Virus record (IMG/VR): IMGVR_UViG_3300025771_000096
Coordinates: 1-33,205 of that record
Strand: one strand, 5' to 3'
Source: a virus
Taxonomy: Duplodnaviria; Caudoviricetes
Length of the DNA stretch: 33,205 nucleotides
Positions 23,700-30,896 of the stretch are shown here, one piece after another. The position numbers and the translations under genes were made by a program. Within the stretch, counting starts at the first letter, position 1; each line of letters starts with the position of its first letter. The notes under the pieces were generated by a model. It was not told the origin of the DNA and ran no database searches. It worked only from the letters and a program-made list of their open reading frames with translations.

Positions 23700-25214
23700 T
23701 CACTGCTCCCGGAGCCTTATAAGCCGCAGGTACTCAGGGTCGCGCGTCAGAACGTGCTCTGGGCGCCTGGGCTCGTAGATCTCCATATTAGGGGGTTTGA
23801 CGTGCTTCTCAAATACTGCCCATAGCAGGTAAAGCATGGCGTCAATCCCGTGGTCGTTGACCTTGATGGGGATGTCCGCCGCCGGGCCCTCGCCCCCCAC
23901 GGCCTCGTACATTTTGGACGTCCGAACCGGGGCCCACTGGTAGCCCGGAATCTCCTCGACCGTCCGGGTGGGCTTTTTCCGCAGGTTCACGTCAGCGTCG
24001 TGCTTCCGGGAGTCCTCTAGGAACCGGATTTTGCCGCTGTGCATCAGGTGGTACGCGTGCATGACCATGGCGAACTTGCGCTTACCGGCCTTGCTGCTGT
24101 GCTTGTCCGCGAAGGTCAGCAGGGGGCGCCCGTCTCGGGCCCGCAGGCGGCGGTTAGCCATGGCTATGCCAGCGGCGTTCTCCGGGTCGCTGACGACCCT
24201 CCAGAAGCCGTAGTACTCGTGGAGCCTCTCGATCTCGTCCGTCCACCACGCGTCGTCTCGCTCGGTCTGGTAGACCTCCTCGACCAGATAGGCGGTCCCG
24301 TCAGACGAGAAGCCCCAGACGCTAACCACCCCTGGGCTCTTGAAGCCCCAGTCCTGGCCTGCCGCCATCCACTCCAGGCGGATTGGCTCCTGTTCAGGCT
24401 CAAAAACGTAGAAGTAACCGTCGTTTCCACGGCTGACCTCGGCGTGGACGACGTGCTGGTTGGGGTCGAAGCAGTCGAAAACCTGCCCCTCAGCGGCTGC
24501 CCAGCGGCCCTCATAGAGCCTCTGGAAGCGCACCCCGCTCATTCCGTACAGCAGGTTGTCCCGGAACTCGGCCCCAGCAGGGGTCCACTCCTCAGCATCG
24601 GCGTCGTAGTACGCCGGATTGTCCCGGAAAGTGGCCCTGCGCCTCACGAAGCCCGGAGGGGGGTCCTCGATGAACTTCTGGTAGAGCCAGTGGTAGGGCG
24701 AATCCGGGTTGGTTTCGACCACCATGACGTGGAATGGGGCCCCTTTGGGCCAGCGCAGGGAGCGGAAAAAGCGCTCGAAGCTGTCCTCGCTGGCCTCTGA
24801 GCCCTCCACCATCAGCACACCGTTCCATTCCGTGGAATAGAGCTTCTGGGGCTCGTCCAGGCCGCTCAAAACGATGGTGGAGCCCCCAATCGTGTACTCC
24901 TGACGGTGCTGTTTGCTGCCTCGCCCTGGGCTGAGCCCGTATGCAGGCAGAACTTGCTCCTCAAAAGAGGTCTGCCAGGAGTTCCTGAGGCTCTTGAGCG
25001 TCTGGCGGCACACAAGAAAGCGGGACCCAGGGTAGTCCAGGCACCACCGCACCAATGTGGCCCCCGTTCCAATCGACTTCCCGGTGCCCGCAGAACTGTC
25101 GATCATGATCGCGCGCACCCGATGGCCGTCCTCCTTGCGGTGGGGTAGCCAACGTAGCTCCTGCATCGGCCCCCGTAGCTCTAGGGGGATGCTCTTGACG
25201 TCTAGGAGGTCCAA
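23700..25214 (-). CDS. terL: Terminase large subunit
   Basis: Walker A SSAGTGKS, Walker B VLMVEGSE, coupling motif VETNP, nuclease AGQDWGF and C-terminal NDHGIDAMLY. Confidence 0.93.
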   Translation of the reverse strand: MDLLDVKSIPLELRGPMQELRWLPHRKEDGHRVRAIMIDSSAGTGKSIGTGATLVRWCLDYPGSRFLVCRQTLKSLRNSWQTSFEEQVLPAYGLSPGRGSKQHRQEYTIGGSTIVLSGLDEPQKLYSTEWNGVLMVEGSEASEDSFERFFRSLRWPKGAPFHVMVVETNPDSPYHWLYQKFIEDPPPGFVRRRATFRDNPAYYDADAEEWTPAGAEFRDNLLYGMSGVRFQRLYEGRWAAAEGQVFDCFDPNQHVVHAEVSRGNDGYFYVFEPEQEPIRLEWMAAGQDWGFKSPGVVSVWGFSSDGTAYLVEEVYQTERDDAWWTDEIERLHEYYGFWRVVSDPENAAGIAMANRRLRARDGRPLLTFADKHSSKAGKRKFAMVMHAYHLMHSGKIRFLEDSRKHDADVNLRKKPTRTVEEIPGYQWAPVRTSKMYEAVGGEGPAADIPIKVNDHGIDAMLYLLWAVFEKHVKPPNMEIYEPRRPEHVLTRDPEYLRLIRLREQ

Positions 25215-26134: not shown

Positions 26135-26790
26135 GCGGGTCGAGGTCTGCTTCGCCCGCCGCTCTTTCTCTCCCTGCTTCCCTCCCTGATCGTGCTGCGC
26201 CCCCTGCGCCGCTCGTGACCCGGTGGGCCCGCAGCCCTGGCGCCTTGCGCCGGGCGCGCCCCTGGTCGCTTGCCGCCTTGCCATGGCTGACACCGTGACG
26301 GTCGAGGACGGCCCCCGCTGCGATAGCGCGGGCCGGACACGCTGGGCGCTGAGCGCCCCGCTCTCTGACAACCAAGTGCCCGCCAGCCCCTCCGCGCGAG
26401 TCCGTGACGCTGGCCCCTCGAAGGAACCCTCGGCCAGTGGCTTGGGGAAGTGGCGGCCCGAAGGAACGACCAAGAGCCCAGGCCGGAACGAGTAGCGACC
26501 GATACCTGACGGCGAGCGCCGCCCACTACGGGCAGGCTGGCACGGCCAGCCGCGCTGCAGCCGCGAGCCTGGGACACCGGGAACCGCCCCGGCAGCCCGC
26601 GAGACTGAGCGTGACAGGCTCAGGCAAGCGAGCAGCGGATCCGATGCTGCCTGCCTTCACAGCAGGCAAGCGAGCACGGCAGGTCGAGCAGGTTCACCCC
26701 TGGCTCGGCCTGCTGGCTCACCTCACCCAACCCATCATCCACCCCCTGAGCCTGACACACCGATTCTGCCCAGGGGGCAGTCTGTCCCGA
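26135..26790 (+). ncRNA. Candidate long structured non-coding RNA or 5' leader of the early operon
   Basis: No convincing ORF. Successive hairpins (e.g. 26135-26159 and 26679-26713) have G-U pairs favouring the + strand, and internal direct repeats are present. No known family recognised. Confidence 0.3.
26621..26676 (+). repeat. 14-bp direct repeat CAGGCAAGCGAGCA x2
   Basis: Exact copies at 26621-26634 and 26663-26676. Confidence 0.8.
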
Positions 26791-26817
26791 CCTAACCACA
26801 AGCCTAGGAGCACTCCC

Positions 26818-27243
26818 ATGTCCGACCCCCGCGAAGACCTCTTCGAGGCCTACCACTCCGCCGTCAACTCAGTGGGCGCCGCCGCTGTCCCCCTCTACCT
26901 GCTGGCGCTCGCAGACTGCGAGGACGCCGTGCTCGAAAGGCTGGAGGCCTGGGACTACACGCGGCTGAAGCTTGCCTCAGCGGGCCTGGAGGACGATCTC
27001 CTCCACGAGGTCCTCTGCGAGGTCGTGGACGAGTCCCCCTGGACCTCCGAGGCCCACCGGGCCCAGGCCGTCTACGACGGCGCCGACCGCCTCGGCAACG
27101 CGGCGAGGCACCTGCAGGAGGATGAGGACGATCCCCGCGAGCGCGCCCGCGCGATCCTGATCGGGGTCTTGGCCCCGCAGCTGGCAGACATTGCCGAGTC
27201 CCTCCGGCACGCCAGCGTCCGCTGGTCGATGGAGCACCGCTGA
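26818..27243 (+). CDS. Acidic first early protein, possibly Ocr (T7 gp0.3)-like DNA mimic
   Basis: ATG 26818 with AGGAG SD, 141 aa. About 29 D+E versus 13 K+R by hand count. DDLLHEVLCEVVD resembles Ocr DDLHDAIHMAAD. Confidence 0.6.
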   Translation: MSDPREDLFEAYHSAVNSVGAAAVPLYLLALADCEDAVLERLEAWDYTRLKLASAGLEDDLLHEVLCEVVDESPWTSEAHRAQAVYDGADRLGNAARHLQEDEDDPRERARAILIGVLAPQLADIAESLRHASVRWSMEHR

Positions 27244-27292: not shown

Positions 27293-27475
27293 ATGACCGA
27301 GAACCCTGACAACCAGTACCCCCTCGAAGGCCCCTGGACCTTCTCTAACGGCCGCACCGTCTACTACGACCGCGTCGAGGGCCGCTACTACGACCGCTCC
27401 GTCGATCTGTACCTGACCGATGAGGAGGCCTACCTCCTGCACTTCGGCCGCCCCGCCCGCACCTTCCACGCCTGA
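27293..27475 (+). CDS. Small conserved phage protein (LEGPW.F.NG..VYYD..EG.YYD)
   Basis: 60 aa, Tyr-rich motif familiar from aquatic phage early regions, C-ending codon bias. Confidence 0.75.
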   Translation: MTENPDNQYPLEGPWTFSNGRTVYYDRVEGRYYDRSVDLYLTDEEAYLLHFGRPARTFHA

Positions 27476-27486
27476 CCCCTGATCCC

Positions 27487-27795
27487 ATGACCCTTACCCA
27501 GACCGCCCGACCCATGCGCGCCCTGCGCGTCCGCCGCCTCCCCGCGACCACCTATGTGGGCCATCGAGTTCGCATCTACGACGACCTGGGGATCATCGAG
27601 CGCCCGTTCACGGTTCCGTTCGACCATGACTTCAACACCTGCCTGGAGGTTGCCGCCGCCAAGCTGCAGCGCCACGGCTGGCAGATCGAGGCCTACTGCG
27701 TTGGCGGCTGGTCGCCCACTGGCACCGGGGACGACCTGCTGCTGGTTTCCGACTTCCACCGCGACCGCTGGACCAACGCCCTGCCCAACGCCTAG
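27487..27795 (+). CDS. Hypothetical early protein
   Basis: 102 aa, high GC3, tight spacing. LPATTYVGHRVRI resembles the recurring phage 'pT..G.Ri' small-protein motif. Confidence 0.7.
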   Translation: MTLTQTARPMRALRVRRLPATTYVGHRVRIYDDLGIIERPFTVPFDHDFNTCLEVAAAKLQRHGWQIEAYCVGGWSPTGTGDDLLLVSDFHRDRWTNALPNA

Positions 27796-27815
27796 CCCCT
27801 GACCCACCTAGAACC

Positions 27816-28097
27816 ATGCCCACCGAGATCTACTCCAACACCGTCCAGCGCCGCTACCGCCGCACCTACTACAGCGAGGCGCAGGTCCGCTTCCCCGATG
27901 TGCCCCCGGCCCCCTACCGGGAGGCCCTGAAGGCCTACGGGTTCCGCTGGCACCGCGCGGGGCAGTACTGGTACGCGCCCTCCAGCGTGGCCCGCGCGAC
28001 CGTCATCGACTGCCTGCACGGCGGCTGCACTGACCTCGACGACATCGCCCTGCATGTGGCCGAGTGCGAGGCCGAGGCCGCCTGCGGCATCATCTGA
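27816..28097 (+). CDS. Hypothetical early protein with F...P....R..LK..GFRW......W motif
   Basis: 93 aa. VRFPDVPPAPYREALKAYGFRWHRAGQYWYA is a motif often found in phage/plasmid leading-region and polyvalent-associated proteins. Confidence 0.75.
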   Translation: MPTEIYSNTVQRRYRRTYYSEAQVRFPDVPPAPYREALKAYGFRWHRAGQYWYAPSSVARATVIDCLHGGCTDLDDIALHVAECEAEAACGII

Positions 28098-28120
28098 TCC
28101 ACCCCTACCCCTGACCGACC

Positions 28121-28429
28121 ATGACTCCGCGACAGCACGAAAACGCATTCACCGTCAATCGACGCCTCATCCCCGGCTACTACGGGGAAAACGACCTGCC
28201 CCGCTACACCTACTGGGTGCAGCACAAGGGCTACCGCCCCCAAGAGGGGCCCTTTAAGACCCGCAAGGAGGCCCTGCGCGCGGGCTCGCACCAGCAGGTG
28301 ACTGCCCGCTACCTAGGGTGGACCCGCCGCAGTGTTGAGTCTCCCCCTCAGCTCATGCGCCGCATTGCGCGTGAGGACCGTGCCCGATTCATCGAGGCCG
28401 CAAACCGTGCCGTGGAGGAGGCCCGATGA
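28121..28429 (+). CDS. Hypothetical early protein
   Basis: 102 aa, contains GPFKTRKEAL, co-oriented and tightly spaced. Confidence 0.7.
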   Translation: MTPRQHENAFTVNRRLIPGYYGENDLPRYTYWVQHKGYRPQEGPFKTRKEALRAGSHQQVTARYLGWTRRSVESPPQLMRRIAREDRARFIEAANRAVEEAR

Positions 28430-28500
28430 GGCCCCTACTCCGCGCCCTGTTCCCCTGGGCGTTCCACCTGCTCCTGCTGTTCCTGCTGTGGGCAGCCTGA
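28426..28500 (+). CDS. 24-aa hydrophobic membrane peptide (MRPLLRALFPWAFHLLLLFLLWAA)
   Basis: ATGA overlap with the upstream stop and a GGAGGAGG SD. Too short for the ORF track. Confidence 0.6.
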   Translation: MRPLLRALFPWAFHLLLLFLLWAA

Positions 28501-28540
28501 GCGCTCCGTTATCCAGCTGGATAGCTAACCCTGACCGACT

Positions 28541-28583
28541 TTCCGCACTTTCTGCATTCGATCTACCAACCGAACCCTCTGAA
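28541..28583 (+). promoter_or_regulatory. Putative early promoter, copy 3 (leaderless transcript)
   Basis: TTCC-GCACTTTCTGCA-TTCGATC-N13-CTCTGAA. TTCG at 28557 is 33 nt before ATG 28590. Confidence 0.6.
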
Positions 28584-28589
28584 CCAACC

Positions 28590-29657
28590 ATGAGCCACAA
28601 CATCCAAGAGAACGACGCCGCCGCCTTCAACGCCCAGCCCGCGTGGCACGGCCTCGGACAGGTCCTCCCTGAGGGGGACCTCAACATCGAGCGGGTGCGC
28701 AGGCAGCTGCCCGGCTTCCTGTTCCCCATCGAGTCCCGCCCCCTGATCGTGGGGGACCGCACCCCGGTATTCACTGCCGACGGCGTCCTGGCCGACGGCG
28801 TGGTGCCCATGACTGGCGACGACGGCGCGCCCCGTATCGTCCCGGACAAGGTAGCCCAGGTCGCCGGGGACACGGGCGAGGTGCTCGCCGTGACTGGCGA
28901 CGGCTACGAAGTGTTCGATAACGGGCAGCTGCTCGACCTCGCCGCGCGCATCAGCGCCTTCGGGGACGGCACGACCCTGGAGTCCGCACTGACCCTGCGC
29001 GGACGGCGCACGGCCGTGGTGCTGGCCCACGCTGGGCAGTTCGTGCTGCCTGGGGACGATGTGAACGAGTCGTACTACCTCTTCACGACCACCCACGATG
29101 GCACGGCTGCTCTGCAGGTGCTGCCTACTAGCGTGCGCGTGGTCTGCTCCAACACGCTGGCGCTTGCCCAGGCAAGTAGCAAGAACACCCTGCGAGCGCG
29201 CCACACTAGCAACATGGCCGTGGCTATCGAGGCCGGGGTGGAGGCCATGCGCAACGGCGCAGCGTTCCACCGCCAGTTCGAGCAGCAGGCGCGAGCTATG
29301 GCATCCAAGCCTGCTAGCAAGGCCGATGTGCAGCGCTTCTTCCAGGCGGTGTACGAGGCCCAGTACGGGGCGCTGCAAGCTAACCCCAAGACGCGCGGCG
29401 AGAAGGCGCGCTACACCCGCGCGGTGGACATGGTCGCTAGCTGGACGCGCAACCTCGACGACCCGAAGCAGCGCATGCAAGGCAGCACCACCGTGTGGTC
29501 GCTGTTTAACAGCGTGACCCAGTACGCAGACCACGAGTCCAATGTGCGCCGCACTAACGGCGAGACGGCGACCTCTGCCCGCAACCACTCGCGCCTGTTC
29601 GGTCAGGCCGGGAAGCTGAAGGACGCTGCCCTGTCCCAGGCCCTGGCCCTGGTCTGA
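28590..29657 (+). CDS. DUF932-family phage/plasmid protein
   Basis: 355 aa from ATG 28590 (MSHNIQEN..PAWHGLG). Motifs Y...N, ESA..L.G.R, YYLFTTTHDGT, PTSVRVVCSNTL, RHT and TVWSLFNSVTQYADH are diagnostic of the family. Confidence 0.88.
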   Translation: MSHNIQENDAAAFNAQPAWHGLGQVLPEGDLNIERVRRQLPGFLFPIESRPLIVGDRTPVFTADGVLADGVVPMTGDDGAPRIVPDKVAQVAGDTGEVLAVTGDGYEVFDNGQLLDLAARISAFGDGTTLESALTLRGRRTAVVLAHAGQFVLPGDDVNESYYLFTTTHDGTAALQVLPTSVRVVCSNTLALAQASSKNTLRARHTSNMAVAIEAGVEAMRNGAAFHRQFEQQARAMASKPASKADVQRFFQAVYEAQYGALQANPKTRGEKARYTRAVDMVASWTRNLDDPKQRMQGSTTVWSLFNSVTQYADHESNVRRTNGETATSARNHSRLFGQAGKLKDAALSQALALV

Positions 29658-29668
29658 GCAGCAACACG

Positions 29669-29718
29669 GGGGCGGGGCTTCGGCCCTGCCCCGACACGCC
29701 CTGGTGATAGCCGCCAGG
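29669..29718 (+). terminator. Tandem stem-loops after the DUF932 gene
   Basis: GGGGCGGGGC-TTCG-GCCCTGCCCC (29669-29692, cUUCGg loop) and CCTGGTG-ATAGC-CGCCAGG (29700-29718), followed ~10 nt later by T6. Confidence 0.55.
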
Positions 29719-29719
29719 A

Positions 29720-29763
29720 TTCTGAAACTTTTTTCGTTCGGTCTTCGACCACTACCCGCTTAG
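29720..29763 (+). promoter_or_regulatory. Putative early promoter, copy 4 (leaderless transcript)
   Basis: TTCT-GAAACTTTTTTCG-TTCGGTC-N13-CGCTTAG. TTCG at 29737 is 33 nt before ATG 29770. Confidence 0.6.
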
Positions 29764-29769
29764 TTCCCC

Positions 29770-30063
29770 ATGACTACTACCAAAGCCAACAAGCGCCAGT
29801 CTCATACCCTCTTCACCCACCTCGTCGGCAGCCGCAAGAAGGGCGGCAGCATCACCGTCGAGTGGTCCGCGCCCGAGAGTAACGGCAACTACATCCCCGT
29901 GTCCCTTGTTGACACGGTCCACATCACCTCGCCTACGGGCAACCGTAGCACCTACGAGTTCGACCCTGGGGACACCCGCGTGACCATGCTCCTCGATGCC
30001 TGCGATGTGGCATGGACCAAGGGCCACGACTACGCGCTCGACCCGTTCGGATCAAAGGCCTGA
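29770..30063 (+). CDS. Hypothetical early protein
   Basis: 97 aa, phage-like codon usage. Its stop codon abuts the hammerhead ribozyme. Confidence 0.7.
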   Translation: MTTTKANKRQSHTLFTHLVGSRKKGGSITVEWSAPESNGNYIPVSLVDTVHITSPTGNRSTYEFDPGDTRVTMLLDACDVAWTKGHDYALDPFGSKA

Positions 30064-30116
30064 CCCGCTGACGAGTCCCGAGGCGTCGGGACGAAACGCC
30101 CTTCGGGGCGTCCGGG
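30064..30116 (+). ncRNA. Hammerhead ribozyme (type I)
   Basis: Stem I CCCG/CGGG (30064-67/30113-16). Core CUGACGA (30068-74). Stem II GUCCCGA-GGCG-UCGGGAC (30075-92). GAAA (30093-96). Stem III CGCCC-UUCG-GGGCG (30097-110). GUC cleavage triplet (30110-12). Confidence 0.92.
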
Positions 30117-30155
30117 ACGCACACCCGGCAGGCACGGTGCCTGCACTAGACAACC

Positions 30156-30446
30156 ATGAGCAACTACCCCAACCTTCCCCGCACCGCCTGGATCGTGTGC
30201 TTGGATGTTTACCACAAGGGCGAGGGCCTCGCGTACACCATGACGCGCCGGGTCTTTCTCGACCGAGAGCAGGCCCAGCAGTATTGCGAAGCCAAAGCAG
30301 CCGAGTCTGACTACAAGTGGTCTTGGGTTGCCAAAGAGTGGTGCTCCAGCTGGCAGCGCGACGGAAGCATGAAGACGCAGTACCGCATGTACATCAGCGA
30401 AGGTCGCCTGGAGCAGCCCGTTCCCCAGCAGGAGGAGGTGCACTGA
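30156..30446 (+). CDS. Hypothetical early protein
   Basis: 96 aa, first ORF after the ribozyme; no SD visible. Confidence 0.7.
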   Translation: MSNYPNLPRTAWIVCLDVYHKGEGLAYTMTRRVFLDREQAQQYCEAKAAESDYKWSWVAKEWCSSWQRDGSMKTQYRMYISEGRLEQPVPQQEEVH

Positions 30447-30447
30447 T

Positions 30448-30654
30448 ATGACTGACACTAAACGATACGCCCTGATCCAGGGCGACGCCGATCTGCGCGA
30501 TGTGCAGGACTACCTGCCCAGCAACTACACCGCCACGAGCACCGAGGACGGCATCCTGATTAGCGGGCACGACCGCTTCGGCTGGACCCTCGACGGCTAT
30601 GTGCTTCCGCGACTGGGCTCTGCTCTGATCGCGGGCAAGGAGGTGTTCAAGTGA
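30448..30654 (+). CDS. Small conserved phage protein (YLPSNY...G.D..GWTLDGYVLPRLGS)
   Basis: 68 aa with GGAGG upstream. The motif is recognisable from many phage early regions; function unknown. Confidence 0.8.
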   Translation: MTDTKRYALIQGDADLRDVQDYLPSNYTATSTEDGILISGHDRFGWTLDGYVLPRLGSALIAGKEVFK

Positions 30655-30896
30655 CCGGCTACTCAGAGGACGATGTGAACCAGACCTACTACCTGTTTAC
30701 GACGACAGACAAGGACCGTCTGCAGGACATTAGCCGCGTGCCGACGCGATTGTTCGAGGCTTTGGTAGTGCTGCGTGATGCGCTGGACGCGATGGCTTCG
30801 GGATATACCCCCGCGACTCAGGCCAACCTTGATGCTCTTGCAGACGCAATGCAGAACCTGCTCTTCCCTGGCATGAACGAGGAGGTGCAGGCATGA
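30651..30896 (+). CDS. Hypothetical protein
   Basis: 81 aa, GTGA overlap, AAGGAGG SD. Confidence 0.7.
   Translation: MTGYSEDDVNQTYYLFTTTDKDRLQDISRVPTRLFEALVVLRDALDAMASGYTPATQANLDALADAMQNLLFPGMNEEVQA

Follow-up and report, generated by a model that had tools for sequence, protein, structure and literature searches.

A conserved hammerhead ribozyme cassette between two phage genes with a likely role in transcript processing and leader shaping

The role of bacterial hammerhead ribozymes is described as largely elusive in a 2019 review (PMC6765202), and type I hammerheads are already known from phage DNA (PMC13725137). The locus considered here raises the question of what such an element does when it begins directly behind the stop codon of one phage gene and lies shortly before the start codon of the next. 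The window, that is, the whole stretch of DNA that was analysed, is a phage record of 33,205 bases. Pfam/PHROG family searching placed the gene of the terminase large subunit on its minus strand (23700-25214). From position 26818 onward, short open reading frames (ORFs) follow one another in series on the plus strand, a DUF932 protein included, and this series is taken to be early from its gene content. The hammerhead lies between two of these genes, on the same strand (plus) as both. The upstream ORF (29770-30063) encodes 97 amino acids and has seven homologues with 49-99% identity, and the downstream ORF (30156-30446) encodes 96 amino acids. Neither of the flanking proteins matches any Pfam or PHROG family. 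Scans of viral contigs with the DUF932 protein and the upstream protein returned copies of the same phage only. As a host marker, the terminase gave just 27-31% identity among the 15 of 352 matches listed, and no host was assigned.

The element is a type I hammerhead at 30064-30116, and its stem I begins one base past the UGA (30061-30063) of the upstream ORF. The 5' strand of stem I, CCCG (30064-30067), and its 3' strand, CGGG (30113-30116), form four G-C pairs. The core segment CUGACGA (30068-30074) is followed by stem II (30075-30092), in which seven base pairs (30075-30081 with 30086-30092) close a GGCG loop at 30082-30085. The stretch 30093-30112 contains GAA (30093-30095), stem III, and the GUC triplet (30110-30112). 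Stem III has six base pairs (30096-30101 with 30106-30111), including A15.1-U16.1, and a UUCG loop. Stems II and III are closed and stem I is open. All 17 pairs are Watson-Crick, and the core is complete against the consensus (C3 U4 G5 A6 N7 G8 A9, G12 A13 A14 A15, U16 H17), just as the initial annotation had claimed for the three stems and the core nucleotides. The cut that it had placed between 30112 and 30113 coincides with the position predicted here, after C30112 of the GUC triplet, so that the downstream RNA is predicted to start at CGGG with a 5'-OH. The core can also be read as a type III hammerhead with stems of 3, 7, and 3 pairs; this reading was dropped, as both Rfam and the relatives support type I.

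The hammerhead is real. The Rfam family RF00163 (type I, clan CL00010) matched over its whole model (45 positions) with 30 bits and an E value of 2.9e-4 on 8.2 kb; on the whole record, the E value was 2.8e-7, and 0 of 14 control genomes gave a match. A search with an Rfam hammerhead model, as proposed earlier, therefore finds the element, yet under the gathering score of 34 bits, and for this reason a default Rfam scan of the window returns 0 matches. The cut-off misses this phage form, since all 7 RF00163 matches in four other phage records also score below it, and membership in type I is given by structural class, not by the Rfam cut-off. A hammerhead descriptor applied to both strands of the window found one site. 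Dinucleotide shuffles produced a loose match in 6 of 300 cases and a match with equally long stems in none of the 300, and the claimed identity stands on this count, on the RF00163 score, and on the full core. The folding energy is unremarkable (z = -0.43) and uninformative. The window copy resembles the RF00163 model in its open-stem I topology, full core, and GUC triplet, but it differs in its longer stems II and III, its 4-bp stem I, and a predicted tail pseudoknot. Between 25000 and 33205, the other Rfam families gave sR30 only (E = 5.3, a chance match). BLASTN against cultured phages returned, as its sole result, 17 Streptomyces phage records that match stem III over 24-27 nt (E = 0.1-0.3); these were rejected as chance hairpin likeness. 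One hammerhead is present in the window and one in the 96% complete genome G003. No further Rfam ribozyme was found in the window, nor any other ribozyme or RNA family in the extra 12.5 kb of G003, and a repeat search detected no intergenic cassette repeated among the families listed.

Close relatives reveal how far the conserved unit extends. When metagenomes were scanned with an alignment built from the upstream protein, 84 pattern matches yielded 5 loci, and the ribozyme is present in all five, the L156 copy being cut by the contig end. The loci represent four lineages: L155 comes from the window's phage, and one upstream protein is shared by L156 and L157. Four copies (window, L157, L158, and L159) could be aligned. 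The conserved block is exactly 30064-30144: it begins at C30064, the first base of stem I, ends at C30144, and comprises an 81-nt unit of ribozyme and downstream hairpin. The initial annotation had given the element as 30061-30120; the ribozyme does lie there, but the conserved unit is longer. All 27 pairs are kept in the four copies (108/108 cells paired), and two pairs have both sides changed, one in stem III and one in the 30128-30144 hairpin, both in L159. The stem III pair 30098-30109 is G-C in the window and A-U in L159 and in X1, one of the four sequencing runs compared out of five listed, all as contigs. Loop III is changed in L159, and the X1 contig combines the same two changes, in the stem III pair and in the loop. 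Equal pairing and covariation were reached by 29 of 500 shuffles, which is modest support when taken alone. L159 has GUA instead of GUC, and GUA is still a cleavable triplet by the consensus (PMC3088659). The hammerhead is under structural selection and is probably active in self-cleavage.

The downstream part of the unit is a 7-bp hairpin (30128-30144, -11.9 kcal/mol) with a compensatory change from A-U to U-A in L159, and conservation stops at its last base. Beyond it, an 11-nt A/C-rich spacer without a Shine-Dalgarno sequence precedes the ATG (30145-30155) and varies among relatives. The downstream gene varies as well: L158 shares the 96-aa ORF of the window, L157 has one of 107 aa in its place, and L159 one of 79 aa; no significant similarity to the 96-aa protein was found for these last two. 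In a contig of run X4, positions 30060-30148 are kept and 330 different letters follow. The distance from the cut to the start codon is 42-43 nt in the relatives (43 in the window). The conserved unit does not include the upstream stop codon, whose first base has different positions relative to the C of CUGA: -7 in the window and in L156/L157, +1 in L158, where the frame crosses stem I and ends at the core UGA, and -17 in L159, which leaves 10 nt free before stem I.

A wider set of phage hammerheads was assembled through pattern scans of viral contigs, which gave at least 125 loci from 21 of 64 collection parts (about 380 stretches in total); further scans added loci. The resulting 154 loci contained 151 distinct type I hammerheads, of which 140, the window copy included, were left after a redundancy filter. 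The set is biased by the search patterns to GUCC/GGAC stems and GUC triplets, and its genes are the longest open frames, taken with no gene finder. A strong leader hairpin is rare in it (15/138).

The comparison supports the tertiary contact that had been proposed between the GGCG of loop II and CGC at 30118-30120. In the window, this CGC is part of the tail ACGCA (30117-30121) and is predicted to form a pseudoknot with GCG of loop II (30083-30085). A YGC located one base past stem I was found in 7 of 9 hammerheads with a GGCG loop (the nine include the window copy, two from one locus, and one with a six-base loop) vs 2 of 131 others. Opposite the last loop G, the tail shows C and U alternately. 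Loop-tail pairing of at least 4 bp occurs in 26 of the 64 hammerheads with a G+C-rich stem I, against a mean of 12.2 and a maximum of 22 in 1000 swaps; the 75 A+T-rich hammerheads show no excess. It is likely, on this comparative basis, that the 4-bp stem I is held by the pseudoknot between loop II and the tail. A contact of the GGCG-loop/AYGC-tail type was not found in the open-access literature. In the set of Perreault et al. (2011), pseudoknots are reported for about 40% (PMC3088659).

The tail also offers the 3' strand of stem I another partner. The fold-back strand CCCG (30124-30127) can pair with 30113-30116 in place of stem I. It is invariant in the four aligned copies, but such a fold-back has a chance probability of 0.48 in the window copy and is not significant alone. 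Fold-back pairing is enriched among hammerheads with a G+C-rich stem I (33/64 vs 8.3 expected) and not among the A+T-rich ones (22/74 vs 23.8 expected), and it is partly a by-product of the pseudoknot. Nearest-neighbour folding of 30030-30175 gave stem I a probability of 0.0. In this fold, the fold-back is favoured by 1.4 kcal/mol (-41.5 vs -40.1), the 3' strand of stem I prefers 30124-30127, and its 5' strand is taken up in pairs with the last part of the coding region. In minimal context, the stem I probability of the window copy was 0.98. The folding model has no pseudoknot or core term, and it also rejects stem I in most phage hammerheads that have 4-bp stems (19/24). It is known that flanking sequence can block ribozyme cleavage (bioRxiv 10.1101/2024.07.19.604288). 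In the tails of L001 and L004, the pseudoknot strand (GCCGC-type) adjoins the Shine-Dalgarno sequence of the next gene; its sequence also complements the 3' strand of stem I, and there may thus be competition between initiation, the pseudoknot, and the fold-back.

The best explanation of the observed motif, its conservation, its compensatory changes, and its layout is that 30064-30144 is a conserved cassette for transcript processing and leader shaping. It probably cleaves itself after C30112 and provides the downstream genes with a defined 43-nt 5'-OH leader, a reading that is favoured with some reserve. Cleavage, the stability of the products, and the effect on translation are deduced as follows. 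Once transcription has passed 30120, the ribozyme would fold and the RNA would be cut after C30112. In the upstream product, the stop codon would be retained, and stems II and III would form the 3' end, which would bear a cyclic phosphate. The downstream product would have a 5'-OH, followed by the possible fold-back hairpin, the conserved 7-bp hairpin, the open 11-nt A/C-rich stretch, and an AUG without a Shine-Dalgarno sequence. The splitting of a polycistronic transcript, which the initial annotation had put forward, is supported as the likely role and has also been proposed for other phage hammerheads (PMC3088659). For the downstream gene, the cassette would act like a natural counterpart of the RiboJ insulator. 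In favour of insulation, the cassette is constant while the downstream gene is swapped among three proteins. Any stabilisation of the downstream RNA would depend on host nucleases.

The results that speak against simple constitutive cutting are the stem I probability of 0.0 in context, with the competing fold-back, and a contig from the RNA run X1 (depth 3.8). This single contig spans the gene end and the cassette and crosses the cut site unbroken; it represents either uncut RNA or DNA. A scan for sigma-70 promoters between 25800 and 33205 found 0 sites, and no terminator-like sites were found on the plus strand of the same region. The promoter numbered four and the leaderless promoters of the initial annotation were not reproduced, and the motif upstream of ORF 29770 is single in the window. 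This two-part motif, CGTTCGGT ... CCGCTTAGT (29735-29766), ends 4-5 nt before the ATG of ORF 29770, occurs once in that form in the window, and is kept in L158 and L159. It is a possible non-canonical or leaderless promoter. L156 and L157 have a canonical sigma-70 promoter instead, TTGACA-16-TATAAT, 36 nt before the orthologue's ATG. Seven successive ORF starts on the plus strand (27294-30156) have no Shine-Dalgarno sequence and are preceded by A/C-rich leaders that often contain CUGAC/CUAGA, whereas a Shine-Dalgarno sequence is present in most of the overlapping genes from 30448 onward.

Several further features were noted in the region. A G+C-rich hairpin without a U tract (29669-29692) follows right after the DUF932 stop codon, and L158 has one too. 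A 39-nt stretch of the DUF932 gene (29054-29092) recurs at 30668-30706 with 85% identity, in the 5' part of ORF 30651-30896 and with the same reading (DDVN..YYLFTT), which suggests a duplicated gene piece. Repeated short motifs (GAGCCTG..CAC; GGCAAGCGAGCA twice) occur in a long intergenic stretch at 26540-26810 and at 28495, for which no Rfam match was found. Phage L001, which is unrelated, has a similar sequence, GAGCCTGAGCACAC, in its early leader (near 285-300).

The contact with the stop codon was assessed in the wider set. For 134 hammerheads with 280 nt of upstream sequence, the upstream stop starts at -12 to -4 in 46, at -3 in 13, and at +1 in 21, so that 80 of the 134 fall between -12 and +1, vs 3.4% of 2600 control anchors. 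A further 13 stops lie at -30 to -13 and 7 are farther upstream, 8 frames read past the core start, and no ORF was called in 26. Among the 93 hammerheads with a stop at -30 to +1, the gap between stop and stem I is 0 in 21, which is the mode and the layout of the window; it is -1 in 9, the overlap is deeper in 40, and at least 1 nt separates the two in 23. Of 57 upstream ORFs that enter the ribozyme, 49 stop at or before the core UGA and 3 pass +15, a point passed by 158 of 420 blind frames used as a control. The distance from the cut to the next ATG has a median of 27 nt and is 15-45 nt in 86 of 133 cases (23 without a call). Contact with the stop codon is the usual, modal layout of phage type I hammerheads. 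The pattern fits tight gene packing together with avoidance of read-through; on this view, the stop codon meets the ribozyme as a result of the dense gene order of phages and of keeping translation out of the core. Neither this layout rule (stop at or inside stem I, no read-through, start about 27 nt from the cut) nor an account of phage hammerheads that touch a stop codon or are coupled to translation was found in the open-access literature searched.

The same layout could also indicate that translation gates the cleavage, and the initial annotation had suggested cleavage coupled to termination. Ribosomes that end the upstream gene would melt stem I and the core, the 3' strand would be trapped in the hairpin of 30113-30116 with 30124-30127, and cutting would occur only when upstream translation stops or uncouples, which would make the ribozyme a translation sensor. 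Both the gating and this consequence are rather unlikely. A terminating ribosome with the stop codon in its A site covers roughly 6-9 nt farther 3', and a short delay in folding is therefore plausible. The gap distribution peaks sharply at 0, the competing fold is within 1.4 kcal/mol, and the fold-back is enriched in hammerheads with a G+C-rich stem I. Moreover, riboJ57, with a translated frame inside it, did not function in cells, although its authors also cite A+U richness (PMC7536230). Nevertheless, the peak at 0 is predicted by tight packing alone, and the fold-back, partly a pseudoknot by-product, is not significant for the window copy itself and not enriched in A+T-rich copies. One ribosome-free interval would be enough for an irreversible cut. 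Most importantly, the orthologues keep the cassette while their stops move from -7 to +1 and -17, in L159 with 10 nt of clearance. These positions argue against a tuned coupling to translation; the stops of L158 and L159 led to the rejection of a tuned spacing between stop and stem as the main reading, and the suggested coupling to termination is weakened accordingly. In the favoured reading of processing and leader shaping, a terminating ribosome may briefly delay folding without acting as part of a tuned switch. The extension of gating to phage type I hammerheads in general, as ribosome-gated mRNA scissors in which the fold-back then locks the released 5'-OH end, is likewise doubtful. If true, hundreds of phages would have a general means of tying mRNA processing to translation without a protein.

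It is unlikely that the cut serves as a decay or separation signal, which would detach the upstream cistron or speed the turnover of one product and so time early expression, without stabilising the downstream RNA. Cleavage by the glmS ribozyme leads to degradation, a cut can destabilise mRNA in some hosts, and a review leaves "different stabilities or translation efficiencies" as possible outcomes (PMC6765202). The low identities of the terminase matches, with the host unassigned, leave room for such a host. On the other hand, structural selection acts on the hairpin by the new 5' end, and this is more in line with protection or leader shaping than with decay. Less likely again is a conserved junction for gene exchange, possibly with a weak pause or a protein-binding structure, at which cleavage is slow or incidental. 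Genes do vary on either side of the nearly invariant 81-nt unit, the X1 contig is uncut, and stem I is weak in context folding. However, all core nucleotides are kept, and the changes are compensatory pairs, a loop change, and GUC to GUA; covariation counts against a junction, because a recombination anchor needs identity, not covariation. The single copy in the near-complete genome G003 also speaks against it.

Hammerheads in arrays between successive short genes were observed elsewhere in the set, in L001 (G001, 565-1920), which has five copies in 3 kb, and in L009/L010, L026, L050, L081, and L085. In 31 of 48 pairs of neighbours, the core-proximal 4 nt of stem I are identical, vs 7 of 48 for stem III, and the two ends of each gene-length RNA could therefore pair. 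It is nonetheless most improbable that the ribozyme makes circular or re-ligated gene-length RNAs in the present phage, which has a single hammerhead and no other Rfam ribozyme found, and circular or spliced products were sought without success in 2011 (PMC3088659). In L058 and L060, an apparent tRNA gene start, identified by eye, lies within about 6 nt after the hammerhead tail, an arrangement that would recall the tRNA-linked ribozymes of phages.

The cassette can be placed among known systems. Perreault et al. (2011) reported hammerheads that flank prophage genes and proposed processing into gene-length mRNAs; cleavage of the clustered prophage hammerheads was shown both in E. coli and in vitro, activity was found for 14 of 18 consensus hammerheads, and single phage copies were also reported, among them the halovirus hammerhead of HF1/HF2, for which a 5' end maps near the cut (PMC3088659). 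The window element shares with these the intergenic position among small phage genes, the variable neighbours, a pseudoknot between stems I and II (predicted here), and the proposed processing role, but it is a single copy, not part of a cluster, and has a conserved leader hairpin. The main text of that paper has 0 occurrences of "stop codon", whereas the window ribozyme abuts one (PMC3088659). RiboJ, a hammerhead followed by a hairpin, fixes 5' UTRs, lowers RNase affinity, and raises stability (PMC7536230). The same order of hammerhead and hairpin before a start codon would fix the 5' UTR here, a likeness of function only; RiboJ is synthetic, whereas the window cassette is natural, intercistronic, and without a Shine-Dalgarno sequence (PMC7536230). 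Type I hammerheads of eukaryotic RNA viruses also lie upstream of a start codon and are tied to translation initiation, but they lack typical loop-loop contacts, whereas the window is from a DNA phage with a predicted pseudoknot.

Phage hammerheads of this kind have been known since 2011, the element is common, and its stop-adjacent position is common and not fixed in close relatives. What the present locus contributes is a group of natural variants by which the hypotheses can be told apart: one cassette that occurs with stops at -7, +1, and -17, with three downstream genes, and with a compensated leader hairpin. While the purpose of phage and bacterial hammerheads is still regarded as open (PMC6765202), this set of variants constitutes a compact test of insulation vs translation gating.
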